The notes below the pieces were generated by a model, which was not told where the DNA came from, made no database searches, and saw nothing but the letters and a program-made list of their open reading frames with translations. Positions 313 to 57,828 of a stretch of 64,000 nt of DNA are shown piece by piece. Origin of the DNA: Mobula hypostoma (lineage: Eukaryota); contig NC_086097.1 in the NCBI RefSeq assembly GCF_963921235.1, positions 57,538,001 through 57,602,000 of the forward strand, given 5' to 3'. The number at the start of each line of letters is the position of its first letter. The stretch's first letter is position 1. The position numbers and the translations under genes are program-made.

Positions 313-405
313 TTTGATGCTGCCTTTGTTCTAATTATAATTAAGTAAAAGAACTGAGTTTATTTCACGACTTCTATTTAATCCTACTTGTTTTTATGTA
401 TTTAG

Positions 406-16162: not shown

Positions 16163-16388
16163 TAACACACACAAAATGCTGGAGGAACTCAACAGGCTAG
16201 GCAGCATCCATGGAAAAGAGACTAGTTGATGTTTTGGGCCAAGACCTTTTGGCAAGACTGCCAAAGGTTTTCGGTCCGAAATGTCGACTGTACTCTTTTC
16301 CATAGATGCTGCCTGGCCTGCTGAGTTCTTCCAGCATTTTGTGTGTGTTACTTGAATTTCCGGCATCTGCAGATTTTCTTTTGTTTGT
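16163..16388. mobile_element. Palindromic Penelope terminal-repeat insertion
   Basis: 13-bp TSD gataggagaggag at 16150-16162 and 16389-16401; about 95-bp imperfect inverted arms. Confidence 0.85.
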
Positions 16389-16800
16389 GATAGGAGAGGA
16401 GAGTGGACAATAGGAGAAAGAGACGGAGGAGGGGACCCAGGGAAAAGTAACAGGCAGGTGAGAAAGATAAAAGATGAGAGTGGGGAATGGAGAGTTTGTT
16501 CACTGGAAAAACTGATATTCATGCCATCAGGTTCGAGGGTACCCAGTCCTCCCAGGTGAGGCATCACTTCACCTGCGAATCTGTCGAGGATATCTATTGT
16601 GTCTGGTGCTCATGATGCAGTCTCCTCTACATTGGTGACACCCATCGTAGATTGGGGGACCGCTGCAGCAAGCGCATCTGCACCATCTGCCACAAGTGGG
16701 ACTTTTCGGTGGCCTTACATTTTAATTCCAATTCCCATTCTGATGTGTCGATCCATGGTCTCTTCTTGTGCCAAGAGGAGGCCACCCTCAGGGTGGAGGA

Positions 16801-19430
16801 CAATAGACAATAGGTGCAGGAGTAGGCCATTTGGCCCTTTGAGCCAGCACCGCCATTCACTGTGATCATGGCTGATCATCCACAGTCAGTATCCAGTTTC
16901 TGCCTTATCCCCATAACCTTTGATTCTGCTATCTTTAAGAGCTCTATCCATCTCTTTCTTGAAAGCATCCAGAAACTTGGCCTCCACAGCCTTCTGGGGC
17001 AGAGCATTCCATATATCCACCACTCTCTGGGTGAAAAAGTTTTTCCTCAACTCTGTTCTAAATGGCCTACCCCTTATTCTTAAACTGTGGCCTCTGGTTC
17101 TGGACTCACCCATCAGCGGGAACATGCTTCCTGCCTCCAGCGTGTCCAATCTCTTAATAATCTTATATGTTTCAATAAGATCCCCTCTCAGCCTTCTAAA
17201 TTCCAGAGTATACAAGCCCAGTCGCTCCAATCTTTCGACATATGACAGTCCCGCGATCCCAGGAATTAACCTTGTGAACCTACGCTGCACTCCCTCAATA
17301 GCAAGAATGTCATTCCTCAAATTTGGAGACCAAAACTGCACACGGTACTCCAGGTGTGGTCTCACCTAGGGCCCTGTACAGCTGCAGAAGGACCTCTTTG
17401 CTCTTATACTCCATTACCTTTGTTATGAAGGCCAGCATGCCATTAGCTTTCTTCACTGCCTGCTGTACTTGCAGGCTTGCTTTCAGTGACTGATGCACAA
17501 GAACACCTAGATCTCGTTGTACTTCCCCTTTTCCTAACTTGACTCCATTTAGATAATAATCTGCCTTCCTGTTCTTACCACCAAAGTGGATAACCTCACA
17601 TTTATCCACATTAAACTGCAGCTGCCATGCATCTGCCCACTCACCCAGCCTGTCCAAGTCACCCTGCATTCTCATAACATCCTCCTCACGTTTCACACTG
17701 CCACCCAGCTTTGTGTCATCGGCAAATTTGCTAATGTTACTTTTAATTCCCTCATCTAAATCATTAATATATATTGTAAACAGCTGTGGTCCCAGCACTG
17801 AACCCTGCGGTACCCCACTGGTCACTGCCTGCCATTCCGAAAGGGACCCGTTAATCGCTACTCTTTGTTTTCTGTCAGCCAGCCAATTTTCAATCCATGT
17901 CAGTACTCTGTCCTCAATACCATGTGCCCTAATTTTGCCCACTAATCTCCTATGTGGGACTTTATCAAAGGCTTTCTGAAAGTCCAGGTACACTACATCC
18001 ACTGGCTCTCTCTTGTCCATTTTCATAGTTATATCCTCAAAAAATTCCAGAAGATTAGTCAAGTACGATTTCACCTTCGTAAATCCTTGCTGACTTGGAC
18101 TGATCCTGTTACTGCTATCCAGATGTGTCGTAATTTCATCTTTTATAATTGACTCCAGCATCTTTCCCACCACCGACGTCAGGCTAACCGGTCTATAATT
18201 CCCTGTTTTCTCTCTTCCTCCCTTCTTGAAGAGAGGGACAACATTAGCCACCCTCCAATCCACAGGAACTGATCCTGAATCTATAGAACATTGGAAAATG
18301 ATTACCAATGCGTCCACGATTTCTAAAGCCACCTCCTTAAGTACCCTGGGATGCAGACCATCAGGTCCCAGGGACTTACCAGCCTTCAGACCCAACAGTC
18401 TATCCAACACCATTTCCTGCCTAATATAAATTTCCTTCAGTTCATCCATTACCCTAGGTCCTTTGGCCCGTATTATATCTGGGAGATTGTTTGTGTCTTC
18501 CCTAGTGAAGACAGATCCAAAGTACCTGTTCAACTCGTCTGCCATTTCCTTGTTCCCCATAATAAATTCACCCGTTTCTGTCTTCAAGGGCCCAATTTTA
18601 GTCTTAACTATTTTTTTCCTTTTCACATACCTAAAGAAGCTTTTGCTATCCTCCTTTATATTCTTGGCTAGTTTACCTTCGTACCTCATTTTTTCTCCGT
18701 GTATTGCCTTTTTAGTTACCTTCTGTTGCTCTTTAAAAGTTTTCCAATCCTCTTGCTTCCCACTCGTCTTTGCTATGTTATACTTCTTCTCTTTTATTTT
18801 TATACTGTCTATTACTTCCCTTGTCAGCCACGGCCTCCCCTTACTCCCCTTAGGATCTTTCTTCCTCTTTGGAATGAACTGATCCTGCACCTTCCACATT
18901 ATTCCCAGAAACACTTGCCATTGCTGTTCCACTGTCATCCCTGCTAGGGTATTGTTCCATTGAACTTTGGCCAGCTCCTCCCTCATAGCACCATAGTTCC
19001 CTTTGTTCAACTGTAATACTGACACTTCCGAGTTTCCCTTCCCCCTCTCAAATTGTAGATTAAAACTTATCATATTATGGTCACTATCTCCTAATGGCTC
19101 CTTTACCTCGAGGTCCCTGATCAAATCCTGTTCATTGCACAACACTAAATTTAGAATTGCGTTCTCTCTGGTAGGCTCCAATACAAGCTGTTCTAAGAAT
19201 CCATCTCGGAGGGACTCCACAAACTCCCTTTCTTGGGATCCAGTACAAACCTGATTCCTCCAGTCTACCTGCATGTTGAAATCCTCCATAACAACTGTAG
19301 CATTACCTTTGCGACATGCCAATTTTAACTCTTGAATCAGCTTACACCCTACATCCAGGCTACTGTTTGGGGGCCTGTAGATAACTCCTATTAGGGTCTT
19401 TTTACTCTAATTTCTCAGTTCTATCCATAA
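16801..19430 (-). mobile_element. Young CR1 LINE (family A): partial APE plus RT, one frameshift
   Basis: 670-aa ORF 19322-17310 plus C-terminus 17365-16886. A single +1 insertion (17367) relative to the copy at 2291-3870. Tail caatagacaatag; gagga duplicated at both junctions. Confidence 0.95.
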
Positions 19431-20264
19431 GAGGAGCAATACCTTATAATGTGTCTGGGTACCCTCCAACCTGATGGCATGAATATCACCTTCTGATGAA
19501 CAAATTACCCCCCACTCTATTCCCCACTCTGACCTTTCTCTTCTCCTCACCTGCCTATTACTTCCCCCTGGTTCCCCTCCTCCTTCCATTTCTCCTGTTA
19601 TCTCCTCTCCTATCAGATTCGATCTTCTCTAGCCTTAGACCTTTCTCCACCCACCTAGCTTTGCCTATCACCTTCCAGCTAGCTTCTTTCTTCTCCCCAC
19701 ATCTTTTTATTCTGCCATCTTCCCCCTTCCTTCTCAGTCTTGAAGAAGGGTCTCGACCCAAAAGTTGTCTTATCTATTCATTTCCACAGATGCTGCCTGA
19801 TCTGCTCAGTTCCACCAACATTTTGCGTGTGCTACTTTGTATTTCCAGCGTCTGCAGACTTTCTCATGTTTATGTTCTTGAGTGCTGTGGAGACAGAGAC
19901 GTCGAATATATTCAAGATGGAGTTTGATCAATATTTAAGCAACAAGTCAAGTAGTCTGGGGAGAGTGGGAAAGTGGTGTTGAGATGACCAGGCTTGGGGG
20001 TGAATTGACTATTTGTGCTTCTGTTTCTTACATTTCAATGGAAAAAGTCTATACAAATTCATATGTATATTACTCTTAAGAGTTTAAGATGTTAGGGTTT
20101 ATTCAGGAGTGATGGGATGATATATGCTTTCCACATGTTCCATCAGTGATAAAAAAGAGTTCATAAAATAAATAGAAGTAGATATTAGAAAACAATTACT
20201 TACAGAAGGTGCTTAGAATACAGAATTCTCAAGCAGAAACTGTAGTTGGGAAGGGGATTCCAAA

Positions 20265-20419
20265 CAACACACATCAAAGTTGCTGGTGAATGCAGCAGGC
20301 CAAGCAGCATCTGTAGGAGGAGGTGCAGTCGACGTTTCAGGCCGAGACCCTTCGTCAGGACACCAGCAACTTTGATGTGTGTTGCTTGAATTTCCAGCAT
20401 CTGCAGAATTCCTGTTGTT
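20265..20419. mobile_element. Penelope-derived fold-back mini-insertion carrying a hammerhead-like motif
   Basis: 13-bp TSD aggggattccaaa (20252-20264, 20420-20432); 24-bp perfect inverted repeat caacacacatcaaagttgctggtg. Confidence 0.88.
20328..20361 (-). ncRNA. Minimal type I hammerhead ribozyme-like motif (Penelope-associated)
   Basis: Minus strand GUC-CUGACGA-A-GGGU(CUCG)GCCU-GAAAC-GUC-GAC: conserved core boxes, helix I GUC/GAC, helix II, no proper helix III. Confidence 0.6.
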
Positions 20420-21529
20420 AGGGGATTCCAAAAATTGTTTTAAAAGGATTTGAATAAAGAGGAAGATTAACAACTATGGCAGAAGGACAGGACATGGGGA
20501 TTAGACAGTGCGGCTTCTCTAGAGAAAATTGCTTGTATAGAGTCTAACTGAATGACAGTTACATTTTATGAATTTTTGAGCAGTAGAACTGTTTTTAACT
20601 GAAGACAGCTTTTCTATTTTTTGAATGTAATTTTGCAAAATTTTGTACTTCAGCTATTGTGGAGACTATTCCCAGAAGACTGTGTTACTATGGTAACTAG
20701 CTGCTCTATCAAATAGACTGGAGTAGATTGACACCAATAGTTTTCCTTCATGCTTCTCTTCCAGAAGCTTATGAGTTCAGTTAACCTGTCATGGAAACGC
20801 CAAGTTGATTGAAGGTGCTTCAAAGAGAAAAAGGGGAAAAATTATGTGTAGTTCTTGCACTGAGAAAGAGAAGGAGAAATGAGAACAATTACATATATAA
20901 TCCCTCTATTCAGTGGCTGGAGAAGTAAATAAATAATTTAAGTATCGAGATTTTAAAAAGTAGGACAATTCTTTATTCTGTTACTTAAACAGGTTCCTGG
21001 TAACTTGGAAATCACCTTCTGTTTAATACTCTGAAAGAGATATTGAAAAGCTGCAAAGTTAATGAAGGAACAATTGTGATTCATAGTCATTCTGATAGAA
21101 GAAAAACTGAAAAAAGATGTGGGTGAAATTACAGGCAGATCAATGGTATCTGTTTCAGCAAAAATGTGTGGGCTTGGTTTTGTGTTCTTTAGTGCAAAAC
21201 TGATAGCAATGCCTCACTGTGGAAATCTGTAGAATGGCATGCTCTCCCTGTGAAATGTGGGAGATTAGGGAATTGCCAATTGTCTCTGACTACTATGTCT
21301 GTAGGATACTTCTTGCGTGCATCTACCATAGACAAGGACATGGAAACTTTTGAGTTTGGGTTAAGGATCCATAGTATCTCAGAGCATGAGAACGCTATTT
21401 AGGAGGAAATATTGGATGTCCTGAAATGCAAAAAGGTGGTTAAGTCCCTGGGACAGGCCCAGCTATATCACAGATGTTATGGGAAGTAAGGGAGGAAATT
21501 GCTGGAGCCCTGGCAGAGATTTTTGTAAC

Positions 21530-21633
21530 ACACATCAAAGTTGCTGGTGAACGCAGCAGGCCAGATAGCATCTCTAGGAAGAGGTACAGTCAACTTTTCA
21601 GGCCGAGACCTTTCGTCAGGACTAACTGTTGTT
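21530..21633 (-). mobile_element. Penelope-derived mini-insertion
   Basis: 15-bp TSD agagatttttgtaac (21515-21529, 21634-21648); same family as 20265 and 56255. Confidence 0.85.
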
Positions 21634-22792
21634 AGAGATTTTTGTAACCTTGTTAGCCCTGGACGAGGTACTAGAAGACTGGAGTGGGGCTAATATTGAG
21701 CTTTTATTTAAAAAGGGCAGTGAATATAAACCAAGGGCTACAGGCTGGTGAACCTTATGTGAGTGGTGGAAAAGTTATTGGAGAGGATTCTGAGAAACCA
21801 GGGTTATTTGCGTTTGGAGAGACAGGAGCTGACTGAGGATAAACAGCATGGTTTTGTGCATGGGAAATCATGTTTTTCAAATTTGATTGAGTTGCTTGAG
21901 CTTGCCAATTGGATGCAAAATTGGCTTGATGGGAAGAGATGGAGGGTGGTAGTGGAGTGTTACTTTTCATGTTGAAGGTCAGTAACCAATGGTACATTAC
22001 CAGGCTCAGTTCCATTGTTGTCTATCATGAGATTGATTTGGATGAGAATGTAGGTGTCATGATTAGTAAGTTTGCGAACATCACTAAAATTGATGGTATA
22101 GTGGGCACTGAAGAAGGATGTCTTCAATAAAATTGGATATAAATCCACTGGGAATATGGGCAAGGGAATGGCAGTGAAATTTAACTCAGACATGTGGAAG
22201 GTGGTGCATTTTGAGAAGTTAAACCAGGACAGGGCCTACACAGTAATGACAGGGTGGGGAGTGTTGGGTGCAAGTACTTAGTTCCCTGAAAGTGGCTACA
22301 CAGGCAGACAGGGAAGTGAAGTGTGGCACACTTACTTTCATTGTTGAGGTTCTGAGTACAGGAGTTGGCTTGTCATGTTACAATTGTACAAAATGTTAGT
22401 TAGACCATACTTAGAGTATTGTGTGCATTTCTGGTCACCATACTGCAGGAAGGCTGTAATTAAGCTAGGGAGGATGTAGAAAAGATGCACAAGGATGTTG
22501 TCTGGATTGGAGGACTTGAGTTATAAGGAGACATCAGATGAGCTGAGACTTTTTCCTGGAGCAAAGGAGACTGATAGAAGTATATAAAATTATGAGAAGC
22601 AGAAATAAGGTTGATAGCCAGGGTCTTTTTCCTGAGGTAGGGGTGCCTAAAACTGGAGGGCATAGTTTATGGTGGGAGAGAAGGGGGTTAAAAGGGATCT
22701 GAGGAGTACATTTTTCACACAGAATATTTAGCATCTGCAATGGGATGGTGGAGGCAGGTACGTGAATGAGCAAGGGATCTGGACATAATGTA

Positions 22793-23795
22793 AACACAAA
22801 ATAATCTGCAGATGCTGGGGTCAAAGCAACACGCACAACACGCTGGAGGAACTCAGCAGGTCGGGCAGCATCCGTGGAAACAAACATTGTACGAAAACCT
22901 CCACAACTTCCACCACCTTCAATAAGACCCCACCACTAAGCACATCTTTCCCTCTCTACTCCTCTCCACTTTCCGCAGGGATCATTCCCTCTGTGACTCC
23001 CCGGTCCACACGTACCTCCCCACAGATCTCCCACCCGGCACTTATCCCTGCAAGCGTAAATGCTACACCTGTCCCTACACCTCTTCTCTCACCACCATTC
23101 AGGGCCCCAAACAGTCTTTCCAGGTGAGGCAACACTTAATTCGTGAGTCTGTTGCGGTCATCTATTGCATCCTGTGCTCCCAGTGCGGCCTCCTCTACAT
23201 TGGTGAGACCCGACGCAGATTGGGGGACCGCTTCATCGAGCACCTCTGCTCCATCCACCACAACAGACAGGATCTCCCGGTTGCCACCCACTTCAACTCT
23301 GCTTCACACTCCCATTTGGATATGTCCATAAATGGCCTCCTCTACTGCCATGATGAGGCCAAACTCAGGTTGGAGGAGCAACAACTCACATACCGTCTGG
23401 GTAGTCTCCAGCCCCTTGGCATGAACATTGAATTCTCCAGCTTCCGGTAATTCCCTCCCCCTCGCTTCCCCCATCCCAGTTTCACTCTGCCCCCTCCCCC
23501 AGCTGCCTATCACCTCCCTCATGGTTCCGCCTCCTTCTACTACCCATTGTGCTTTCCTCTATTCCTTCTTCACCTTTCCTGCCTATCCCCTCCCTGCTTC
23601 CCCTCCCCCACCCCTTGACCTTCCCCCTTACTGGTTTTTCGCCTGAAACCTACCAGCCTTCTCCTTCTCACCCTCCCCCCACCTTCTTTATAGGGCCTCT
23701 GCCCCTTCCCTCTTCAGTCCTGAGGACAGGTCTTGGCCCAAAACGTCGACTGTTCATTTGCACGGATCTGCCCGACCTGCTGAGTTTCTCCAGCG
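22793..23795 (+). mobile_element. Penelope-like element (Neptune type) 3' part with GIY-YIG endonuclease
   Basis: YPCKRKCYTCPY Cys linker, then VIYCILCSQCGLLYIGETRRRLGDRFIEH...GMN; inverted 5' arm; 15-bp TSD tctggacataatgta (22778-22792, 23796-23810). Confidence 0.9.
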
Positions 23796-24633
23796 TCTGG
23801 ACATAATGTAGGCAAGAGGGACTAGCATAATGATGAGCGTAATCCAGAGGGCTGAAGGGCCCATTTCTGTGGTGTACTGCAAGCAAATTCAGAATTCTTG
23901 CATAGATTTCTACATTTGCACCCAAGTTACCCAGCAACTAGTTATTGATAGTTTCACTGCTCAGCTCCATTAATTGTGAAGCAATCCAATGGTAGAATGT
24001 GACGTTGTGGCAATTCCCCAATAATTTCACTAAGAAATCGGCATGAGCAACTTGCTCAAGTTCAAGTAGAAAAATAGGGAACGTTTCTGCTTTGATACCA
24101 ATGGAGGAGAATGGGTTTAAGAGATGAGGGTAAGTGTTAGTATTTTTAGATGTTTAAAGATGTTTAGATGGTTTGTGTTTAAACTTTTTGCATATGTGAT
24201 TTTTCAAATGTTTAAATATATCAACAATTGTGACAGCCAGTAAAGCCAAAGGGCACAGCTTAACATTTTGTCAGTTTAGTTCACTTGGCCATCTCATGGT
24301 TTTTTTGTCAATCTAGGTGGCAGGATCCAACTCTGTCACAATCAACAGCACCCTGATCCTTCCCTACCTACCATACTGCTGTCCATTTGTTGCTATTTTT
24401 ATATCATGACACTGTTCAGGGCCTCATCACTATAGTTGTTTAGCAAAGTTATCACTGCTTTGTACAGCAAGGTTTCAGAGATGGATGTAAAAAAAATGAT
24501 GCTGATATAGTTCAGAGATCACCATTGATTACAAAATCCAGCCATTAATAAAAGTAAAGGTCTGTCTCAATTGTTCATTATTACTCTTACAGCTGTAACA
24601 TAATCAATAATACATATTTCTTTTAACAAACAG

Positions 24634-24871
24634 TCGTGGATGATATCGGACTAAAACCTGCAGAAAAATCTAGCCCTGTTGTTACTCCTGTTATCACGCC
24701 AATTCCTACTCTTTCAAGAGTATCCACACCTTCGCCAATATCACATCCAGCCTTGAGGAGCAATTCAGTGCTGTTGCAGAAGCTTCCAAATCCCTGGGGA
24801 GATGCAGAGCTCCCTCTAGAGGAAGAAAATCCTAGCCCAGCCCAAGTAGCAGCACCACAGCAAAGAGGCAT
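24634..24871 (+). CDS. KIAA0586: TALPID3 coding exon (window exon 5)
   Basis: aacag|TC acceptor, AT|gtaagt donor (phase 1 to 2). Contains VTPVITP and LPNPWGDAELPLEEENP (human LPKPWGDGDLPLEEENP). Confidence 0.95.
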
Positions 24872-25171
24872 GTAAGTGAAAATGTAATGCTTCCTACCAG
24901 CATATCTTGGTATATGTAATCTTTTTTTTAAATCTTAATTGCTTATCCTATTAACTTTTTAATTATTCCATTCACATCTGTACTAATGTCATCAAATCCT
25001 CTTGATTGGTTAAATACCAGAGGGCACAACTGAAAATTGGCACAGACTGTTATAATAAAAATTAAAGTATACAGATACATTTTGACTACAGCCCAAATTC
25101 ATGAGTATATGTAAAATTAAAAAAAATGTTTAATGGAGCCAAAGGAGGAAGAGAGTACACTGAAGGCAAGA

Positions 25172-30199: not shown

Positions 30200-30720
30200 T
30201 GGTAAGCTCAGTTCTGATCGCTTCACTACAGGAAGGATGTAGAAACTATAGAAATGATGCAGAGGAGATCTACAAGGATGTTGCCTGGATTGAGGAGCAT
30301 GCCTTATGAGAATCGGTTGAGTGAACTTGGCATTTTCTCCTTGGAGCGACAGAGGATGAGAGGTGACCTGATAGAGGTGTATAAGATGATGAGAGGTATT
30401 GATCGTGTGGATAGTCAAAGGCTTTTTCCCAGGGCTGAAATGGCTAACATGAAAGGGCACAGTTTTAAGGTGGTTGGAAGTAGCTACAGAGGGGTTGTCA
30501 GGGTAAGTTTTTACGCAGAGAGTGGTGAGTGTGTGGAATGGGCTGCCAGCGACTGTGGTGGAGGTGGATACAATAGGGTCTTTTAAAAGACTCCTGGATA
30601 GGTACATGGAGCTATGGGTAACCCTAGGTAATTTCTAAAGTAAGTCATGTTCGGCACAACATTGTGGACCAAAGGGTCTGTATTGTGCTGTAGGTTTTCT
30701 ATGTTTCTCTGTTCTATGTC
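30200..30720 (+). mobile_element. CR1 3' fragment
   Basis: QRRSTRMLPGL...RMRGDLIEVYK; (TTCTATG)-like tail. Confidence 0.85.
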
Positions 30721-30879
30721 ACTACCAGTTTATCTTGATACCCTGAGCTGTTACTGCTTTCTGACACAGTCCAGCCAAAACTTTCTCCTTCTTCTGTGTA
30801 CTTAGTGTGAGAATTGGAGTAGTATTCGTGATTTAAAGTACTTTTTTAGATCTTTACTGGTTAATTGATCACCAGAAGA

Positions 30880-33470: not shown

Positions 33471-33477
33471 GGCTGAC

Positions 33478-34975: not shown

Positions 34976-35220
34976 TATCATGTCAGTAGCAAAAGATGAA
35001 GAACCTGAGAACTTAATTCAGCCTCCTCTACATTCAACTGCCCCTGAGAGTCTTCCATCACATGTGCAAGCTCCAGCACCCCCTTGTCAATCACTGGCTC
35101 AATCTGCATCCACTGAGGAGAGTAGCTCAACAATCTCTGTTACTGAAACCGAGACTGCTGATCGAAACATTTCTGAAGGAGAGATCCTAGTAAGCCATGA
35201 GCAGATGGCTGCAGCAAACG
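34976..35220 (+). CDS. KIAA0586: TALPID3 coding exon (window exon 6)
   Basis: ttcag|T acceptor, G|gtatga donor (phase 2 to 1). IMSVAKDEEPE...ISVTETETADRNISEGEIL matches TALPID3 VMSVAKDEEPE...VTETETLDKPISEGEIL. Confidence 0.95.
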
Positions 35221-36254
35221 GTATGACTATTGAAGACCATTAACAGGCCATTAATTATGTAGGAAGTAGAATGTTACACAGTACTGTAGAAATAGAATTA
35301 TGTGCCGTGTTGAAAAATGCTAGCCATAGTTCACTGAAAGCTAAATAGATTAGAGACCTGGATGGTGCAGGGTATAAGCTATCTTTTCAGCTTATCATAT
35401 GCTTGAATTGCATGCAGATGAATGGGTTGAAGGTTTAGTTTTTTGGTTGAGAAATGCTGAACAATTTCATCCATATGGTAGTGAAAGTAGATACATGATC
35501 TAAGAGTGCCCAGTTAAGGATAAATTACACTACTTCAAATCAGCCACTGAGAGAAACCAAAACACTTGTACACATGTTTTTGTGCACCAGATAAGCATAA
35601 CAGATTGAGCTGTACGATTCAATACGACAGATAGGATCATAACGTCATACAGCATGGAAGCATGCCATTCTGCCCATAACATCCATGCTGACACGTGGGC
35701 ACCCATCCATTTTAATTTCCATCTTCCAGTACTTGGCACATATCCTTCAATTTGTATACTTTTCAAGTATTTGTCCAGGCATCTCTAATGCCGTTGGTGA
35801 CTCTGCTTCCACTGCTCTCTCTCTGACATTGTATTTCTTTCCTAAACTATTCCAATATCCTTTCGTCCTCGTGTTTATGACGTTGGTGGCTCCACTAAAT
35901 GTAGAGGGAGTTTAGGAATTTGAGGGAATCTGTTGGATATGATTTTATGCCAGAAAGTGGCACCATTGATCAACTGTGGTATATTTGAATGGTGCAGTAG
36001 GCATGAGAAACAATGTCCTATCACTGTTTCTATTTCTTATGCACCTTTCCAGTACTTCTCTTTGCTTATATTCTCTGTAGAAGTTAATAAGTACATTGCA
36101 GTTCACTTTTCCTTGCCTATATGGGCATGGTGTCTAGGTGGTTGAAGACTTCTAATACGGGGTGACAGCTAATATAGCCAACATTAACAATGCTGCCTCA
36201 CAGATCAAATAATCAAGTTCTAATTCTGACTCAAACAGATTGCACATTCTCTCT

Positions 36255-36478: not shown

Positions 36479-37459
36479 GAATTATGGGAATATCAAAAGA
36501 GAGGCAGATGTGCACAGGAGGCCAGAGTCTGGAGGGGTGAGATCATTAAGAAGCTTAAGATTTTGGATGAAAATTAAATTTAAGCACTGAGGCCAGCAAG
36601 AAAGGAACGAAGGATACATTGTTCTAGACTGGTATATGATAAGGTAGGCAGAAGTTTCTATGATCTGAATTTGATCAAAATTAATGCTCTTGGAGGATGG
36701 GAGATCACCTAGAAGAATAATTCTCCCAGTGGCCTTAGTTACACTTAGCATCAATGGCAGGCTATTATTTATATATTTGACACCAGGCTACAAAAATAGA
36801 TACTCCAAGCCAAGCTTTGTCATGGCAAGAGGTTACCAGTGGACATTGACAATGCTTTATGATGTTCTCCAAATTTCCTTAAATTATGTAACATCTTCAC
36901 TAACTCAGGGAATCCTTGGTCTTTGACCATTTCAGTGAAGATAAAACATTCTGGCTGGTATTGATACCCTTGAGTCCATTTATTGGGAGAAGAATCTCAC
37001 AAACTACTCACCTGTCTATGCTGTCGAGCACCTCTCATGCCATCTTTGGCAGAATCTGTGGGACTCACATTAGCCTATCAGCCATTTTAAAACCCAGAGA
37101 ATGGAGTGGAAGCAAGCTGTCTTTGATTCCAAAGAGCCACCTAGGAGAGGAGAGGGAGAGGCAGAGGCCTTAATACCAACTGAATTGAATATTTAGCAGA
37201 TTGAAAGACTTTCAGTAGTCTGTTGGGATTAGATCTTAAATCAACACCAAAATGGTGTGACAGGCACTGCAGGAGTTTTGCCCTCGTATTTTCCAGTGAG
37301 TACTGAATAGACAATATATGTAATTATGGTATGTGTAGGAGGGAATCATTTTCATTTCAGAGAATCAGTATAATTTTGAATTTCAGAATGAGTAATTCTT
37401 ATGCCTGTGTGATTCTGAATTTTCTCTGTTCTGGTGTGTAATTGTCATCATTTTTTCAG

Positions 37460-37536
37460 CCTTAGCAGAAGGAGGTATATTTCTTCCAAACCTCAGTGAT
37501 AGTCTGTCTAGCACACTCCTTGATGCTCAAGAAATG
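37460..37536 (+). CDS. KIAA0586: TALPID3 coding exon (window exon 7)
   Basis: ttttttcag|CC acceptor, ATG|gtaagt donor (phase 1 to 0). (A)LAEGGIFLPNLSDSLSSTLLDAQEM, cf. human LTNLNDSLSSTLHDAVEM. Too short for the ORF track. Confidence 0.92.
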
Positions 37537-39529: not shown

Positions 39530-40452
39530 AGTCTCTTGAGTCTTGAGCTTGGCTGCAGGACCCTCGAGCCTTGGGTTCTTGAGTCTTGAGTTTAACTGCA
39601 GGATTGTCAAGGCTAGGGTTCTTGGAGCTCAGAGACAGACTGGGAACTGAAAATCAACATAGAGCCAGGACTTATCCTTCAACAAGCCAGGACTCATCTT
39701 TAACATGACACTAACCTGAGACAGGACAGAACATAAACAGAGTCAGGACTTATCCTGAGACAAGCCAGGACTCAACTTCATCTGCACACCAAGGTGGGAC
39801 AGGTCTCTCCATCAGGTAACAGCAGAATGGCTAGACTTACCCAACAGAGGCAAAGCCAAGTCAAGACAGATTCCACCCCCCCCACACAGGGCAACAGCAA
39901 AACAGTCTGACTTACCCCACAGAGGCAAGGACAAGACAAGACAAGACCCCCATAGGGCAATGGCAAAACAGCCTGACTTACTCCACAGAGGCAAGGACAA
40001 GAGACAACACCAAAGAACAGACAGATAGATCCATCTCTGCTCCAGGGTAGCTCTGAGTCTCAGTTCAGCCAGCAACCTCAGCTGGCTACAGATACATCCA
40101 GATCCCTACCTAGCTCAGAGTAGCAGGCAGCCACTCAGCTGGCCCAGGAAACAGCCAAATCCATATCACAAAGACTACTCCAACAAGTGGCAACAAGGCT
40201 CCATGAAGCAGTGGTTCTCCAACCAAGCCTAGAGATCACAAATGGTTTCACTAGCAGATTGCTCTAAGGGGGACTGACAGGACAAACCAGCAGCCCACCC
40301 CCACCCCCAAGGCTACTTATATTGCAAGCCCAAAGATGGGAATCAGGTGCCTATGATTAACTCAAACAAGGGACAGCTGGAAGACCCGGAGTCCTGAGTC
40401 CACGGACCAGACCGTGAACTGGAATGCGGACTTCACGGACCGGACCATGACA
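39530..40452 (-). mobile_element. LTR-like element with internal tandem repeats, one end visible
   Basis: Minus strand begins TGTCATGGTCC at 40452, then cacctg and tataa motifs; two ~80-bp and three ~65-bp imperfect direct repeats at 39635-40010. Confidence 0.5.
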
Positions 40453-41670: not shown

Positions 41671-41674
41671 TAAA

Positions 41675-41890
41675 AAAATAGAAACTGCAGAAAAATAGCT
41701 CAGCAAACCAGGCAGTTTTTGTGGGAACAGAAACAGTTAATGTTTTAGATTGAAGACGTGTCATCAGAACTGAGCAGAGTTCCGATGAAGGGACTTCAAC
41801 AGAAAAATTAATTGTTTCACTTTCCACAGATGGCCTGATCTGTTGAGTTATTTTCCTGCATTTTCTGTCATTTCAGAGTTGCAGCACCTG
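41675..41890. mobile_element. Old palindromic Penelope terminal-repeat insertion
   Basis: Degenerate inverted arms centred near 41775, each with a decayed hammerhead-like core (tcatcag / ccgatgaaggg...gaaa). Confidence 0.55.
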
Positions 41891-42397
41891 CAACTGAGGA
41901 GAAAGGAACTGGGAAGATTTTTTCTTTGTCCTGAGGAAATGTTCCTGGATGAAAAAAAGAAGCAGCATTCATTCAAAGGAGAAAAGGTGGAAGAAATAGA
42001 AATTTAAGAGCATCTCCACCCTGAGCTAGAGAGCACTAGATTTTTTTGGTATGTGCAACCTGTAATTCTGTGAATTGGTTGTTAAACATGGAATAACTGT
42101 CGGGATTTTTGAATCATATGTCTTAAATTTATGTTCAGTGTTATCATGGTGAACTAGGCCTCATAGCTAAGACCCAAAAGTATCAAAATAACTTGTTACT
42201 TTACGCCAACAAAATGAGGATGCTCAATCTAGTGCTTTATACAGAAACCCAGAATTACAACTTGTTAACTGCAAATTATCTTGAAAATATAGTTCAAGCA
42301 TGAAACAGGATGTTATTAAGGATATTATAGGAGTTATAAAAATGCTAACAGTTTATTTGCATTTCTCTCTTAAATTTAACTATTTTGGTTTGCTCAG

Positions 42398-47260: not shown

Positions 47261-47267
47261 TATATCT

Positions 47268-48935: not shown

Positions 48936-48959
48936 ACATATGGAATACCATTCTTCTCT

Positions 48960-49252
48960 TTCATGTGTGTCTAACAAACAGAATAACAGGGCATGTATCA
49001 CCAGATTCAAGCTCAGCTTTTGAATGGACATCTCATGCATTAAAGATTAATTCTTGAAATCCCTATCTACCTTGTCACAGTCCTTGCACTTTATTTGTTG
49101 CCCTGCATTGCACCTTCTCTGTAGCGGCAACACCATATTTTGCATTCTCAATCTTTTTACTACCTCAGTATGTTTACATATGGCATTGTTCATCTGAGTG
49201 GCATGCTGCCGAAGTTTTTCTTCTCAGTGCAATTGACAATAAACCAATACCA
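48960..49252 (+). mobile_element. Rex-like 3' UTR fragment
   Basis: Similar to 1440-1740; ends aataaaccaataccaat. Confidence 0.5.
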
Positions 49253-49924
49253 ATGGTGGACAGTTAGGAATAGAAGCTTGTCAGCCTCGACATGCTTAGC
49301 TGGAGGACATCAGCATCTTTTTGTTGTGATGAATTTGTATATCTGTGGATTGGTTGTGAAAACAGGAAGGCTGGTGGGAATTGCCAATCATGTGATCTAG
49401 ATTTATTTTCAGGCTTATCATTGATGAACCAGGTTTCAGTAGCCAGGGCCAAAATACAAGAGTATCATGTTACTGTCCTCCAACAAAATTAGGATACCAA
49501 TCCTAAACTTCTAAAATAGCCCCAGAATTACAATTTATTAAGTCGAAATTATACTGAAAATATTGTTCAAACATGAACCAGGATCCCATTAGGGATAAAA
49601 AAAAGTTATAAATTCTAACTATGTCTACTGAGACTTCAAGAAAGCATTGGATTTCACAAGTTGAAGTATACTATCTCAGCAGGAGTTTGACTCATTGGTT
49701 TGGGAATTGGTTCCATTCCTATAACCCAGAGAATTGCCCTCACTCAGTAGTCCTTTGCTTGTTACATCTCCCAGACTAGTTTACATTACATGAGGAGTTG
49801 GGCAATAACTTTCCAATATAATTGTTCACATTATGGTCTTGAGTTCTTTTTCTTTCTCCAGTAGTTTGAAAGAGGAAGTTATATTGTACAAAAGTACAAT
49901 TTAAAGCTAATGCATCATTTAATA

Positions 49925-51350
49925 TTTGCCTGCCACCGAAACAGTTCTATGGCTAATGTCATCTTTCTGGCCCTACACTCATTTCTGGAGCATCTGGGCA
50001 GTAAAGACACTAATGTTAGAATACTGTTAATTGCCTACACCTCCACCTTCAATACTATAATTCCACCCAAACTCAACTCCAGACTCCTAAACCTGGGACT
50101 CAACCCCTCCTTTTGCAACAGGATCCTTGACTTCCTGACCAACAGACCGCTAGCAGTAAGGACAGACAACACCACAGCCACAATTATTCTCAACACTGCT
50201 GCCCCACAAGATTGCATTCTACTCCCTGTAGATTCACAACTGTGTGACCATATTCTGCTTTAACTTCGTCTGCATGTTTGCAGATGATAACACCTCACTG
50301 CGACATATCTCAAATACTGATGAGTCGGAGGACAGAAAAAAGAGAGAAAGCCAAGTGATATAGTATGATGACTGCAACCTTTCCCTCAATGTCAACAAAA
50401 CAAAGCACTGGTCAATGACTTAAGGTGTGGGGAGTTGTGTTGCAACGAATGAGGCGAACCCAAGCGCAGGACACAGGCACGGAGGATGTGTTTGGATGCA
50501 GACGCGGGCGTGAGCGTTGAGTGGCAAACAGGAGAGTGTGCAGGAAGGCAGGAGACAGGCAGAACTGATCTTGACACTGAGCGACTGAGTTTCACAGGTA
50601 AACCTCGGAACTGGAGTAGAACTTAGAAAACTTATCTTGACACGAAGAGACTGGGTTTCGCAGGTAATTCTTGGTCCTGAAGCAAAACTTAGAACACACA
50701 GTCCTAAGCGGCCGGGAAACGTTAATTACCACACAGGCAAAACCAACGATCTGGCAACTAGTGGATGTAAAGCTGGGGTTCTTATGCTGCAGGTCTTGAT
50801 GAAAACCAGGTATGCCATCATCAAAGGGAATTAGCAGAAAATGGGGAATTAACGGTCAAGACTGTGTCAAGTTGTAGTGCACATATTTCTGTACTTGGTG
50901 CTGAAGTTGAGAGGTTTAAGTGTTTCAAGTCACTAGGAGTGACCATCACCAACAGCCTGTCACCAGCGCTTTTGCTTTCTTAGAAGGCTACAGAAATTTG
51001 ACATATCTCCTTTGATCCTCACCAGTTTTTATCAATGCACCAATCTGGATGCATCACAGCTTGGAATGTCAACTGCTCTGCCCATGACCACAAGAAACTG
51101 CAGAGAGTTGTAGACAACAGTTCAGCACATGATGGGAACCAGCCTCCCCTCCATGGATTCTGTCTATACTTTTCAGTGCCTCTGTAAAGCGGCCAGCATG
51201 ATGAAACATCCCACTGCTCCAGACATTCTCTCTTGTTTTACCTTGTACTACTTCAGTGCACTGTTGTAATGAATTGATCTGTATGGATTGTCTGCAAGAT
51301 TAGTTTTTCACTGTACTTCAGCACATGTGACAATAGTAAATCAATTTACC
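49925..51350 (+). mobile_element. Rex1/Babar RT fragment, degenerate
   Basis: STFNTIIPPKL, CNRILDFLTNRP, NTAAPQDCIL, FADDNT and HKKLQRVV remnants. Confidence 0.8.
50438..50869. mobile_element. Solo LTR (432 bp) nested in the Rex fragment
   Basis: TG...CA termini with a 5-bp TSD agttg (50433-50437, 50870-50874); the host Rex sequence resumes afterwards. Confidence 0.75.
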
Positions 51351-51479
51351 AGTTTGATGCTTCATTTGATTGTAATGTCAATTATGGCTTAACCTTGCAC
51401 CTCTCTGCTCACCATGTATTACACTACTTTAAAAATATGCAAAGATTTCTTCCACTTCTCTTTGAGAAAGAGAAATTCA

Positions 51480-53645
51480 AAGACTCACCACTATCTAAGA
51501 GAAAAGAAGTAATATTTCTGTATTAAATGGACAACCCTTAGTTTTGAACAGTGACCCCTAGTTCTGTGTTTTCGCACAAGTGAACTTGTCCACCTTGTCA
51601 AGATTGCTCAGGCGTTCATATACAAACGTTTGTATTTCAGTTTCACTCTTCTAAACTCCAGCATTATTCATCTTAGCCCGTGTCAATATTCCTCTTAGGA
51701 CCATGTGCCTACTCAAGGTGTTAGTCAATTTCATTTCTTCTGAGCTGCTTCCAACACATTAAAATCAATCCTTAAAAAAGGAGATGAAGGTGATGGAGCA
51801 GTGATTGACCGGTGTGTTGTCTGGGATAGAATGGTTCAGTTAGGAGGAGAGACTGGATAGGCTAGGATTGCTTTCCATGGAGCAGAGGCTGATGGGTGCC
51901 CTAACAGAGGTACACAAAATTATGGGGGGCACAGATTCAGAGGAAAGTAGAAACGATTTCTCCATAAGAAAGATGTCTAAAAAAATGAGGCATTGGTTTA
52001 AATTGAGGAGTAAGGGGGTTAAAGGCAATCTGGGGAAGTTTTTTTCACTGGGATGATGTTTGCAATCTGTGTACTGCCAGAAATAGTAGTGGGGGGGTGG
52101 TATTTCACAACATTTAGGGAGCTGGCTGAGCACCAATTAACAAGGCATAGAAGGATACAAATCCAGTGTTGGTATTGTGATTAGGGTAGATGGTACTCAA
52201 TGGTTAGCAAGGATATTTCTGCCCTCAGAGTATTACTGAGACCACACAGTCTTTGTACAAACTCTCTACTTTGATTCCCTTAGTGATAAACAATGAAATT
52301 CTCTTTGCTCTCCTCAGTACTTGCAGTACCTGCGCAAAAACTTTTTTTCAAATCATGCACTGGACCACTCCCATCCCTCCATATCTCTGAGCTCCAAAAC
52401 CTCTCACCATTTAGGTAATATGCTTTTCTTTTCCCTGCCAAAATAGAGATTTGCATATTTTTGCACATTGCCAGCTTTTAGCCCACTTTGTGACCTCTTT
52501 ATATTCTCTTTACCACTAATTTTACCATATGTAAAAAAGGATGTGCTGGCATTGGAGAGGGTCCAGAAGTGGTTTACCAGAATGATCACGGGAATGAAAG
52601 GGTTTAATGTATGAGGAGCATTTCATGGCTCTGTACCTGAAGTTGCTGGAGTTAAGAAAAGTGAGAGGGGATTCTCATTGAAATGGTGCAACTATGTGTC
52701 TTTCTCGTGATCTTTGGACACTGGTAATATAAAATACTACAAGTCTCGTTCATTGGTTCATTGGCGTGATTGATGGTGGGTGAGCTGCATGGCCTCGGGT
52801 CCTCATGCCATGGTGTCACCTGTGGCAGCCACCCAGGGGAGGAGATGCCAGGGGCGGTGGGGGAGAGAATGTAGGTGTGGCAGGCATTCTGGAATCCGTG
52901 CTGGGTCAGGGGTTGGCCCTTGCCGTCTATCTCTGCTGTCGGTGCTGCCCTCCAGTGTTCGCTCCTTGGGAGACATGGTGGCTTGCCTTTGTCTGCAGCT
53001 GGCCCAGAGCGAGGAAAGCTGATTTGCTTTCGTTTGCAGCTAACCCAGTGTGAGATGAGGAATTCCTTCATCCTTCTTGCAGAAATGTGGCTTCAGGACA
53101 ACATCCTATACGCCATCAATCTTCGGGCTACGCCATTCAGGGACTTGTGCTAATGTTATTTTGTGACTGTATGTGCTATTGTAATTATTTGTGTTGTGTG
53201 CTGTGTGTGATACTATGTACTGTGCTTTGCACCTTGGTCCTAGAGGAACACTGTTCCTTTTAGCTGTATACATGTGTATGCTTAAATGACAATTAAAGTT
53301 GAACTTGAACCCTGCCGAATATTGAAAGGCCTTGATAGAGTGGGCGTGGAGTTGATGTTTCCAATAGTTGGAGAGTCCAAGACTAGAGGTGACAGCGTCA
53401 GAATAAAAGGAAGCCCCTTCAGAATAGAGATAAGGAAGAATACCTTCAGCCAGAGTTTGGTGAATCTGTGGCATTCATTGCCCAGTCATTTAAAGTGGAG
53501 GTTGATAGGTTCTTGATTAGAAAGGCCATCAAAGGTTACAGGGAGGAAGCAGGAGAATGTGGTTGAGAGGGAAAATCCGCCGTAATTGAATGGAAGAACA
53601 GATTTGTTGAACCAAATGTCTTATTTTTGTTCCTATGTCTTGTGG
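51480..53645. repeat. Cluster of old CR1 3' fragments in alternating orientation
   Basis: Fragments at about 51480-51780 (-), 51830-52210 (+), 52230-52520 (-), and 52530-52680 resuming at 53310-53645 (+). Confidence 0.6.
52681..53309 (+). mobile_element. Non-autonomous internally deleted Rex1-like element, copy 2
   Basis: Collinear with 13826-14500; LTQCEMRNSFILLAEMWLQDNI; tail gttgaacttgaa; interrupts a CR1 fragment at ttgaa. Confidence 0.7.
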
Positions 53646-54559
53646 ATACCCAGTCATCGTAACTGTTGGGCAGATTTAAGAATGTAACAAGATGTGTAAC
53701 ACAGCAGGATGCTATCCAGCCCTACAAGTCTGCTCCACCATTTGCCAATGTTGTGAGTGATCTTCTACATCAACATAATTTTCCTTTTCACCACCCCCAC
53801 ATCACTTGATTCTCTTAGTATTCAAATATCTTTTGATTCCATTTTGAACAAACTCGATCACTGAACTTCCGCAGTTGTTGGGGTTGTGGAATTCCAAAAA
53901 CTCACCACCCTCTAAGTAGAGAAATTCAAATTCCAATCCAGTTTGGTTAATTATCATGTACACCATGAAATCTCTTGCTCACATGAAGCGCACAGAGTAA
54001 CAGGATACAGGATAGTAATAAATAGCATAAATAGAGTAATGAGCACAAAATAACAGAATGATGCAAGATTGTAGTGTGATTTGAAGTATCACACTAAAGC
54101 AAATCAGCTTTCCTCGCACTGAGTCAGCTGCAGACAAAGGCAGTACTGATGGCAGAGACGGTCTGCAGGAGCCAACCCCTGACGCAGCACAGATTCGAGC
54201 ATGACCACTGCATCTGCAAAAAGATATGCTGAAGTGACAACGACAAAGTGATGGAGAGAGGTAGGATTAATAATCCGACAACCTGGCAGCTCCCCTCCTG
54301 ATGAAGGGGAAGTGAAAGAAGTGATTAGTTCAGAAGTCTGAAAGTAGTGGAGAAAGAAATACTTCTTAATCTGGTCATCCAGGATTTCAAACTCCTGGAA
54401 CTTCTTCCAGAAGGTAGAAGAGAGAAAATGGAATCCATCCATCCTTGATGGGACTATTAGCCTTCCTGAAGCAGTGCACTGTGATGATAGACTGGATAGA
54501 AGGAAGTGAGGACTGGACTCTGTTTACCTCACTCTGCAGGTTTCTCATCTCAAACCTAA

Positions 54560-55840
54560 ACAGTCCACAACTTCTTCAAAGACTTTGCAGGAAAGGGAGA
54601 CCACTTTCCTATATCCCAGACTGTCAAGCCCTGTATAAATTTTCACATTTCAAATGGATTTCCTCTCATTTTTCTAAACATGAATACGTCTAGTCTACTC
54701 AATCTCCTCATTCAGTGTACCTACAGTCCATGGAATCAACCCCATGAACTTTCACTTCAAGAACAGCCATTCTTAGCGAAGGAGACTAAAACTGTACTTC
54801 AGCTGCATTGTCTGCAAGTGCAGCAAAAGGTCTGTCTTTCTGTATCTAAACTCTAAATGAATCCTAATAGCTAGTTTCATCTATATGTTGGCTTTAAGTG
54901 ACTTGTGTCAAAATACATCTAAGTTTGTTTTTGAGCATCAGCACCACCCAGTGTCACATTTAAAATATGATTTTTTTTCCAGCTTGTACACTCAAGTAGT
55001 TAACTTAATACTCTTTTTTTCACGTTACATACTACTTTGTTCTTCACCATTTGCTCAGTTTGTTCATATAATCCTCAAAACCTCTTTACACCCTCCCTTG
55101 TACTCACAATCTCACCTGGTTTAATATCATCAGCACACTTGGAAATATAACATATAGTCCGTTCAGCATGATCATTGATACAAACTGCGAATAGCTGGTA
55201 GGCACACAGGTGCTGATACCCATAATGCCCACAAGCCTCTGCCTGCCATCTGAGAAGGATCCATTTATTCACGATCTTTGTTCTTTTTTCATTCAGTAGG
55301 CAACTCTCAGTCCATGAGAATATATTATCCCCAATTCCATCCAATCCAATAGTGCAAGATTTCCAAAATTTTAAATACATCATATTGCCTTCATCCTCCT
55401 TATCTATACAACTAATCACATCCTCAAACTGAGTAGATTAATCAAGCATAATTTTCATTTCGTAAATCCTTGCCAATTCTGAGTAATCCTATGATTCTTT
55501 TCAAGGTATTCTGTTCCTATGTCCTCTGTGTTTTCTCTCCTAATGATAAGTTAACAGATAGATACTTACATGAAATTATGGAGATGCTCTTGCTACCCCC
55601 AATTGAAACAGAACCTATTGAAGAATATAGAATTAGGAAGATGACAACTGAAGCATTCAATGTCTCTTTGAACACCTCTTTCAAAATTCTGGGTCATGAG
55701 TTGTCAAACCATTGCCTTTCAACTTCACTAACTATTCAGAGTGATTTTTTCTGGCAAATACTTATTACCTTCAATTCCTTAGTATTGCTAGACTTTTAAT
55801 TCTTTAATAATTCTGGGAGGTCTTTTTGCAATTTCTTTCA
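54560..55840 (-). mobile_element. Ancient CR1 remnant
   Basis: Minus-strand remnants such as DEGNMMYLKF, WTESCL and ISKCADDIK. Confidence 0.55.
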
Positions 55841-56254
55841 TGAACTATGTGGCCTTTCCATGTCAACCATACACATGTTTGTGGTATTGTGTATGTTGTT
55901 AACAGTAAGTGCCCAAACCAAGTTACTTCATTGTATTAGTAATGCATAATATCATTAAGTTAACATCATTGCAAATTGTACTTGATTCAGGAGCAAAGTT
56001 AATTCATATAAATGGCATCGAATGACTAAATTACGGAAGAAATACAATTCTAAATACCAATATAGTACATTGGGAGTTAATCTGAATTATAATCTTGGAA
56101 GTATAAATAAACAATTCAAATAGATTTGCAATAAATTGTTTTCTTTGGATAGATTTTAGCCGCTGATATATTTCCACCACCACATTGTTTGATCTGTGTA
56201 TTTTGTGTGCACTTATAATTTACAAAACTGTCTGGAGATCACCCATTTCATAAA

Positions 56255-57008
56255 CAACAGGAATTCTGCAGATGCTGGAAATTCAAGCAACACACATCAA
56301 AGTTGCTGGTGAACGCAGCAGGCCAGGCAGCATCTGTAGGAAGAGGTGCAGTCGACGTTTCAGGCTGAGACCCTTCGTCAGGAGACCCGACGCAGACTGG
56401 GAGACCGCTTTGCTGAACATCTACGCTCTGTCCGCCAGAGAAAGCAGGATCTCCCAGTGGCCACACATTTTAATTCCACATCCCATTTCCATTCTGACAT
56501 GTCTATCCACGGCCTCCTCTACTGTAAAGATGAAGCCACACTCAGGTTGGAGGAACAACACCTTATATTCCGTCTGGGTAGCCTCCAACCTGATGGCATG
56601 AACATTGACTTCTCTAACTTCCGCTAAGGCCCCACCTCCCCCTCGTACCCCATCTGTTACTTATTTTTATGCACACATTCTTTCTCTCACTCTCCTTTTT
56701 CTCCCTCTGTCTATACCCCTTGCCCATTCTCTGGGTCCCCCCCCCCGTCTTTCTTCCCGGACCTCCTGTCCCATGATCCTCTCGTATCCCCTTTTGCCTA
56801 TCACCTATCCAGTTCTTGGCTCCATCCCTCCCCCTCCTGTCTTCTCCTATCATTTTGGATCTCCCCCTCCCCCTCCAACTTTCAAATCCCTTACTCACTC
56901 TCCCTTCAGTTAGTCCTGACGAAGGGTCTCGGCCTGAAACGTCGACTGCACCTCTTCCTACAGATGCTGCCTGGCCTGCTGCGTTCACCAGCAACTTTGA
57001 TGTATGTT
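56255..57008 (+). mobile_element. Young Penelope-like element 3' part (GIY-YIG C-terminus) with inverted 5' arm
   Basis: ETRRRLGDRFAEHL...RLGSLQPDGMNIDF; about 95-bp near-perfect inverted arms; TSD acccatttcataaa (56241-56254, 57009-57022). Confidence 0.92.
56912..56947 (+). ncRNA. Minimal type I hammerhead ribozyme-like motif, sense to the TALPID3 pre-mRNA
   Basis: AGUC-CUGACGA-A-GGGU(CUCG)GCCU-GAAAC-GUC-GACU; predicted cleavage after C56943. Confidence 0.65.
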
Positions 57009-57212
57009 ACCCATTTCATAAAACTTGTCAAAGTGCACATTAAGAATAATTAAATGCTGAGTTTGCACATTTTGTGCATCATAATAATTTCTCAATGACC
57101 TGTAACTTAAATATTTTGGCCTGGTGTGTGATCATTGCTGCGCTCTAAATCCAGATATTGCTCTGACAATTGCCCTGTAAAAATATTAAGAAGTATGTGA
57201 AGCCTCATTTAT

Positions 57213-57505
57213 AGTGGTACATTAGTAGCGTAGTGCGACGCTATTACAGCTTGGAACATCGGAGCTCGGAGTTCAGTTCCAGAGTCTTCTGTAAGAAAAT
57301 TTGTACGTTCTTCATGTGTGCACAAAGGTTTCTTCCAGGTGCTTCAGTTTGCTCCCACACTCCAAAGGTGTGCTGTTTAGTCGGTTAATTGGTCATTGTA
57401 AATTGACCTGTGATTAGTCTAGGGTTAAATCAGTGGGTTGCTGGGCAGCGTGGCTTGGTGGACCAGAAGGGCCTGTTCCATGCTGTATCTCTAAATAAAA
57501 TTAAA
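57213..57505 (+). mobile_element. V-SINE (HE1-like) with CR1-type tail
   Basis: tRNA-like head with ggagttcagttcc B-box-like motif, core ctcccacactccaaag...ggttaattggtcattgtaaattg, CR1-like gaagggcctgtt...gctgtatctctaaa end. Confidence 0.75.
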
Positions 57506-57693
57506 ACATGTAATGTAGACTAGGAGCAGTACATGACTTATCTCTGCCATACAGCGAGGACATAATCGTCTTATGTGACTGAGTGATACCTCTGGCAAAT
57601 TTTATGTTTGCTCTTGGGATATTGAAGGTGATATGTGATTTTATCAAATAATGACAAATTTAATATGTAGTTACAAAACGTATCAATTTTTAG

Positions 57694-57828
57694 TCACAAG
57701 AGGTACTGCAGATGCTGGAAATCTAGAGCATACACACAATGTGCTGGAGAAACTCAGCAGGTCAGGTAACATCTATGGATGGGAGTAAACGGTCAACGTT
57801 TCAGGCTGAGACCCAACATCAGGACTGG
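57694..57828 (-). mobile_element. Penelope terminal-repeat mini-insertion
   Basis: 9-bp TSD aatttttag (57685-57693, 57829-57837); mutated hammerhead-like core. Confidence 0.75.

Follow-up and report, generated by a model that had tools for sequence, protein, structure and literature searches.

The introns of TALPID3 in Mobula hypostoma, in a window of 64,000 nucleotides (the whole stretch analysed, contig NC_086097.1, positions 57,538,001 to 57,602,000), contain a recurring sequence that resembles a minimal hammerhead ribozyme, which raises the question of where these motifs come from and whether they act in the host transcript. Very likely, they derive from the minimal type I hammerhead in a Penelope-like retrotransposon's terminal repeat (pLTR), truncated insertions of which are present in these introns.

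Motif copies in the TALPID3 introns

The initial annotation listed nine sites, and the profile and structural searches of the window find the motif at all nine, as 11 copies, with both strands occupied at two sites. A search with a structural descriptor, a kind of check that had been proposed, returns 90 rows, most sites being counted in two registers, and none in each of five shuffles. By profile search, the window contains 14 repeat pieces and a genome sample of 1.6 Mb contains 300, and the same search of the reversed sequence gives no repeat pieces at E≤10. The Rfam scan gives no hammerhead family match at E≤5, which we take as a limit of its models. All 12 core positions are intact in only four of the 11 copies (20327-20361, 21588-21623, 56350-56383 and 56912-56947), and the core, at least 3 bp in both helices and the palindrome are found together in only two (20327-20361 and 56912-56947). 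The features are listed below, motif positions being counted with the core's C as 0, with the predicted cut after +27.

5820..5999, plus strand: TALPID3 exon, profile positions 882-941 (profile match)
16161..16392, both strands: old head-to-head pair of short element ends, with a 13-bp target-site duplication
16224-16259 (minus) and 16258-16289 (plus), within 16161..16392: decayed motifs meeting at the helix I edge
19736..19771, plus strand: decayed motif, three core changes in the alignment, within an older truncated copy's pLTR
20267..20419: young insertion, a minus-strand piece (+93 to -3) joined to a plus-strand tail piece, with a 13-bp target-site duplication
20327-20361, minus strand: intact motif of the young insertion 20267..20419
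21527..21635, minus strand: short piece, +92 to about -9, with a 15-bp target-site duplication
21588-21623, minus strand: motif in piece 21527..21635, core whole, palindrome broken
22795..23798: older insertion made up of an inverted tail piece, the end of the GIY-YIG coding region (23028-23447), a pLTR rich in pyrimidines, and the motif, with a 15-bp target-site duplication
23716-23751, plus strand: motif in the older insertion 22795..23798, G12 changed
41682..41892: two decayed motifs forming an old head-to-head pair, at about 41735-41772 (minus) and about 41778-41815 (plus); a target-site duplication was looked for and none found
56252..56383, minus strand: inverted tailed piece, +129 to -2, with motif 56350-56383 (core whole, helix I shortened)
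56382..57010, plus strand: 5'-truncated element end with endonuclease C-terminus (56382-56624), pyrimidine-rich pLTR, motif and tail-less end; 14-bp target-site duplications enclose it together with the inverted piece 56252..56383
56912..56947, plus strand: intact minimal type I hammerhead motif, with helices I and II of 4 bp each (G10.1-U11.1 in helix II), core, extra A and palindrome; predicted cut site after 56943
57694..57828, minus strand: older piece, short and tailed, that stops just 5' of the motif, with a 9-bp flanking duplication
57791-57826, minus strand: motif in piece 57694..57828, A9 changed

The TALPID3 profile matches are collinear on the plus strand, at window positions 400-594, 4152-4280, 5820-5999, 13099-13236, 24663-24851, 34977-35225, 37456-37536 and 58717-58806; four of the eight are weak (E>0.05), and the exon for profile positions 1190-1231 is not located in the window. 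The matches from 5820-5999 to 58717-58806 bracket the motifs, all 11 lying between collinear exon matches and none overlapping one, in agreement with the intronic placement given by the initial annotation. This location has no special meaning because the density of the copies equals that of the genome sample and only one intact copy, 56912-56947, is on the TALPID3 sense strand. The intronic copies are likely inert, truncated insertions. That some of them are working ribozymes affecting the processing of TALPID3 pre-mRNA is very improbable: the intact sense-strand motif would be in place for such a role, but its insertion is young, the copies are no denser here than in the genome at large, the window has no further intact copy on the sense strand, the head-to-head pairs are on opposite strands, and single minimal motifs show no cleavage in vitro (PMC4209133).

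Every motif of the window is located in the pLTR of a Penelope-like element. In a full-length copy elsewhere in the genome (L061), a motif, an open frame of 1,043 residues and a second motif follow each other with a motif spacing of 3,514 nt, and the tandem motif pair of L062 is 3,516 nt apart, both pLTRs of either copy having the motif. The open frame starts 3' of the motif, at a distance of about 70 nt, and about 300 nt downstream of this frame, which encodes reverse transcriptase (RT) and GIY-YIG, the motif is found again in the pLTR. Pfam RVT_1 and GIY-YIG match the L061 frame, both below the Pfam cut-offs, and the GIY-YIG cut-off is passed by window 23028-23447. The single ORF P0001 has RT together with GIY-YIG at the C terminus, the homologs listed for it have PF00078, some also PF01541, and its linker between RT and endonuclease, C-X4-C-X2-C, fits CX2-5CxxC. 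The pLTRs, the inverted truncated partner and the optional tail of 30-40 nt are all present in this element, and the insertion holding 56912-56947 is young, being 96-98% identical to L061. The pLTR position, the full-length copy and the RT and GIY-YIG frame support the earlier assignment of the motifs to minimal type I hammerheads of Penelope-like terminal repeats.

Conservation, pairing and predicted folding

The motifs fit the published min-HHR consensus of Penelope-like elements (PLEs; Cervera and De la Pena 2014, PMC4209133), sharing with it the type I topology, the core boxes, the extra base after A9, G at 10.1, a two-base palindrome (15.2-16.2) replacing helix III, the short helix I and the pLTR location, as well as the many solo copies and the close pairs on opposite strands. 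An uncharacterised variant had been proposed from the extra A and the lack of helix III; both, like the palindrome, are hallmarks already published for this class. The motifs differ in having helix II at the short end (4 bp), G10.1-U11.1 in the youngest subfamily and C/U-rich flanks, and there are 52,761 exact 22-nt matches genome-wide as compared with about 9,000 motifs in Xenopus, obtained with different counting methods. The searched supplement text of that study has no shark or ray row.

In young, middle-aged and old copies alike, the core letters of CUGANGA, GAAA and NUH are the commonest at every core column. The extra A (between 9 and 10.1) is present in 188 of the 194 sampled copies, and 51 of the 194 retain core, helices and palindrome. 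The CG palindrome in place of helix III would be suited to dimer folding, as also suggested earlier, and is eroded by CpG decay in old copies. At position 11.1, U is present in 42 of 46 young copies, forming the G10.1-U11.1 pair, and C is the commonest letter in middle-aged (27/40) and old (50/101) copies.

Among the genomic copies, two-sided changes are near expectation for all helix pairs, and copy-to-copy covariation is therefore rejected as a sign of selection; the core is also kept no better than the 3' flank within this lineage (0.113 vs 0.134, p=0.25). The helix II variants quoted as keeping their pairing are one-sided changes and not compensatory ones, so that the claim of selected helix II pairing is not sustained. 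Copies within the genome thus show neither covariation nor extra conservation of the core. Across related elements (about 50% protein identity), the core is retained, with covariation in helix I. In a core-only search, 15 of 26 related loci, representing about six families, carry the core on the sense strand 95-151 nt after the ORF; the extra A and a helix II of at least 3 bp are present in all 15, and a helix I of at least 3 bp with family-specific letters in 14, such that helix covariation is found between families. At the remaining 11 loci, the sequence examined downstream of the ORF, up to 450 nt long, has no core.

In a model that ignores core tertiary contacts, other folds are predicted to be more stable than the hammerhead, both for the monomer (-6.0 for the hammerhead vs -10.0 kcal/mol) and for the dimer (-9.5 vs -28.3 kcal/mol), and four stretches of the window have folding z-scores between -0.17 and +0.70, which is not unusual. 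It is possible, though less likely than not, that the motif has lost its cutting in this lineage and is kept as promoter sequence, for protein binding or as a folding element beside the RT start sites. Such a loss would agree with the more stable predicted hairpin that buries the core, and with the change to U, in the most recently active subfamily, of a C11.1 that is highly conserved in the published motif, whereas the prevalence of the core letters in copies of all three ages and in about six related families speaks against this reading.

Ends of the insertions and the 5' edge

Target-site duplications of 13-15 bp are found at all five insertions tested, and a duplication is also found at one of three further, older insertions. 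The pieces have two 3' ends, at about +93 and +130, and of 14 complete inverted pairs 13 combine a tailed with a tail-less end. The 5' ends of 15 of 59 young pieces are at the ribozyme 5' edge (-11..+3), with a peak at -3/-4, and none of the 59 is at the cut site (+26..+30). Genome-wide, 9.2% of the 5' ends are at the edge and 1.0% in the cut-site window, a difference of about 9-fold, and among 100 matches listed the 5' ends at -2/-3/-4 number 8/23/27 and those at -6/-7/-8 number 3/5/6. These data show a discrete end at the ribozyme 5' edge, and cleaved RNA is a minor template at most.

The cut site being only a minor breakpoint is also what a loss of cutting would give; against this, 31 of 100 listed breakpoints within +24..+32 are at +28 (hand count). 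However, 15 of these 31 have microhomology of 3-4 nt with the partner, and CpG decay can also shift rows there. Breakpoints at the cut site are therefore not taken as proof of cleavage, given also their absence from the sample of 59. In the Anolis carolinensis element Poseidon (PAc; Frangieh et al. 2024, PMC11167929), hammerhead mutants have no effect on insertion in vitro and no reads end at the cut site, yet the motif cuts upon protein addition.

A tentative explanation of the edge, put at slightly short of even probability, is that helix I supplies, with its first base, the beginning of the element RNA, so that the ribozyme edge is also the start site of the promoter, and that internal priming 100-135 nt downstream mass-produces solo-hammerhead insertions. 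By analogy with studied relatives, two motifs of an active element would pair via the palindrome, probably with the help of the element protein, and cleave weakly after +27. Both DNA strands would be nicked by the endonuclease, and from each DNA end reverse transcription would be primed at one or the other of two internal sites. The preferred reading of the ends seen here, at about even odds, is an RNA start where helix I begins (-4) and a less used one near -8. With a start at -4, priming in the first pLTR would run off after 100-135 nt, scattering solo motifs.

There is a real possibility, at clearly less than even chances, that the pile-up reflects a splice acceptor or a block to reverse transcription and not a transcription start. 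A pyrimidine tract and two AG dinucleotides, before -6 and -2, are found upstream of helix I, and the two groups of end counts could reflect exon ends that match by chance. A splice acceptor is also in line with Penelope of Drosophila virilis, in which an intron ends at the helix I 5' end (PMC4209133) and the start site is 46 bp upstream of that intron (PMC2377424). On the other hand, about 38 of the 100 matches listed adjoin an inverted piece of the element directly, leaving no room for an exon (hand count), an inverted partner is present at 11 of the sample's 15 edge pieces and the other four are without common upstream sequence, and related elements are U-rich before helix I, mostly without AG. 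A block by a bound protein or structure may also give such a pile-up. No paper on the chondrichthyan motif or the 5' edge pile-up was found in a search mostly outside the subscription literature; Lunse et al. may include shark or ray motifs.

Comparison with known elements

PAc has a frame with RT and GIY-YIG, a pLTR hammerhead, two reverse-transcription start sites that bound a 30-40 nt tail, and cutting and extension of both DNA strands, all as considered here. PAc belongs to Penelope/Poseidon and its ORF starts within the hammerhead, unlike the frame 3' of the motif and the cysteine linker of the present element; a 5'-end pile-up at helix I is not described for PAc in the sections consulted. 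The features of the Neptune clade described in Craig et al. 2021 (PMC8557442) are also similar: a C-terminal GIY-YIG, the CX2-5CxxC linker, partial tandems, and an inverted 5'-truncated partner with the tail at one end only. Nematis also carries a zinc-finger-like linker. Non-LTR retrozymes (bioRxiv 10.64898/2026.07.22.740005) likewise have type I hammerheads from PLE pLTRs and are reported in the sole chondrichthyan sampled; they are head-to-tail tandem arrays, whereas the window has single or head-to-head truncated insertions and no head-to-tail tandem hammerhead units among its copies.

The motif class, the dimer model and the placement in PLEs are already published, and the present finding adds an example from a cartilaginous fish in which the copies are very numerous. 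PMC8557442 treats the role of the hammerhead in PLEs as an open question. With a young element that is intact and with breakpoints by the thousand, this genome makes the questions of the start site and of protein-assisted cleavage easy to test. If the RNA does start at helix I, this would explain the single minimal hammerheads scattered through animal genomes, and genomic breakpoints would become a map of PLE transcription starts.

Motif copies and their host element

The 36-nt motif is present in eleven copies across nine sites of the window, and every site is flanked by collinear TALPID3 exon matches, in agreement with the initial annotation, which had described a motif recurring inside TALPID3 introns. 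All 12 core positions are intact in four of the eleven copies, and the core, both helices and the palindrome are intact in two, at 20327-20361 (minus strand) and 56912-56947 (plus strand). A structural descriptor search, of the kind proposed in that annotation, gives 90 rows, compared with none in five shuffles, and a profile search of the repeat over evenly placed genome samples totalling 1.6 Mb finds 300 pieces, compared with none in the reversed sequence. As both controls are empty, the signal exceeds chance, and the motif family is a genuine feature.

The host is a Penelope-like retrotransposon (PLE). The DNA preceding the 56912 motif encodes the C-terminus of its endonuclease, and window positions 23028-23447 exceed the Pfam GIY-YIG cut-off. 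At L061, the genome locus used as reference for the breakpoints, the motif is followed by an open frame, containing RT, a cysteine linker and GIY-YIG, and by a second motif 3,514 nt further.

L061:4404-7949 (minus strand of contig G000:C1): a young, complete element whose 1,043-residue frame is uninterrupted and whose two motifs are identical

The closest named homolog of the L061-frame protein is from Chiloscyllium punctatum (72%), as would be expected for a cartilaginous fish. Further tandem element copies are seen at the genome loci L062 and L211-L212. The endonuclease peptide has 166,738 first-look candidates across the 3.48 Gb genome, there are 52,761 exact matches to a 22-nt stretch of the young motif, and a rough extrapolation from ten large sampled contigs gives ~650,000 pieces and ~110,000 intact-looking motifs.

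The window also contains long inverted pairs (2301-3851 with 16799-18350, and 11054-12040 with 63012-64000; 95-97% identity), which are probably young copies of another retroelement, and a 63-nt unit that is repeated three times at 39806-40009 (spacing 66-75 nt). Open frames at 8516-9687, with an apparent esterase-type ORF1 and then a putative endonuclease start, may resemble CR1/L2-type LINEs.

Insertion ends and the 5' edge

Target-site duplications of 13-15 bp are found at all five window insertions of one tested set; among three older window insertions tested, one has a duplication of 9 bp and two have none. The 3' ends of sampled pieces cluster near +93 and +130, in line with the pair of RT start sites and the tail described for Anolis Poseidon in PMC11167929. 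Both ends are complete in 14 of the 17 inverted pairs, and 13 of these 14 combine one end of each kind. At L250 and L280, related loci in metagenome contigs, the second motif is inverted too, with the same head-to-head layout. In the L061 pLTR, a stem-loop that spans both RT start sites is predicted between +55 and +125, counted from the motif core, and between-subfamily conservation of the tested +47..+79 part is as good as that of the hammerhead core.

Signed positions are numbered from the first core box, whose C is 0, such that helix I is formed by -4..-1 and +28..+31, and the predicted cut site is between +27 and +28. From 62 pieces that are at least 90% identical to L061 and reach a 3' end, three were dropped (two at sample edges, one extending to the reference end). 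Of the remaining 59 5' ends, 15 are at -11..+3, seven at -250..-12, four at +4..+60 and none at +26..+30, around the cut site; the binomial p of the edge pile-up (~1e-13) overstates the case, since the two halves of a single insertion enter as separate counts. Genome-wide, a breakpoint at -8..0 is seen for 4,880 of 52,761 anchors and one at +24..+32 for 1,153 of 113,654, the two anchors representing somewhat different subfamilies and catching deletions as well. A hand tally of 100 listed edge rows gives 5, 12, 8, 23, 27, 11, 3, 5 and 6 breakpoints at positions 0 to -8, respectively. Among 100 listed rows of the cut-site window, 31 are at +28, 15 of these with microhomology; in rows such as G000:C1:103023576 and C1:139170726 the whole core is deleted between flanking short direct repeats.

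The sharp edge at -4 may correspond to the element RNA's 5' end, a reading to which we give slightly less than even chances; the sequence at this edge is consistent with the general initiator consensus. The edge may instead mark a splice acceptor or a site where RT is blocked, but splicing is disfavored by the ~38 of the 100 listed edge rows that join the inverted partner directly, with no exon between.

Published relatives, cleavage and selection

The extra A and missing helix III, initially suggested to be an uncharacterised variant, are already described in PMC4209133, and the motif family belongs to the published class of PLE minimal hammerheads. That study also lists the palindrome, solo copies and nearby opposite-strand pairs, the only local difference being G10.1-U11.1 in the youngest subfamily (42/46). 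A shark or ray row is absent from the searchable text of PMC4209133 and its supplement; a 2026 bioRxiv preprint reports PLEs as well as hammerhead repeats from one chondrichthyan.

The location, structure, decay and breakpoint pattern of the motif element are observed. Hammerhead cleavage, judged from studied relatives, would be weak and would need two motifs and probably also the protein of the element, since the consulted text of PMC4209133 describes a single minimal motif as inactive and dimers as having low activity, and that of PMC11167929 describes the Anolis Poseidon hammerhead as cleaving only with protein and as dispensable for insertion. This agrees with the folding prediction, in which a core-burying hairpin is more stable than the hammerhead fold.

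Ribozyme selection is not observed among copies within the genome. In 107 old copies, the deviation of eight non-CpG core columns is 0.113, compared with 0.134 for the 3' flank (p=0.25), and paired and two-sided change counts are near expectation at every helix pair, so that the excess conservation and covariation considered initially are not found among genomic copies; the helix II variants previously read as kept pairing are one-sided changes. CpG decay explains much of the motif loss.

The cross-family set comprises 80 related loci from metagenome contigs, of which 27 extend to the end of the ORF, 26 of them with sufficient downstream DNA. A core-only search downstream of the ORF finds a sense-strand core in 15 of the 26 (95-151 nt from the ORF), compared with two of the 26 on the antisense strand; 11 loci show no core. 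The 15 core-bearing loci represent about six families and are not independent cases; the extra A and helix II are present in every one of them and helix I in 14, the helix letters varying by family. Across related families, sequence comparison indicates that the motif is under selection as a ribozyme.
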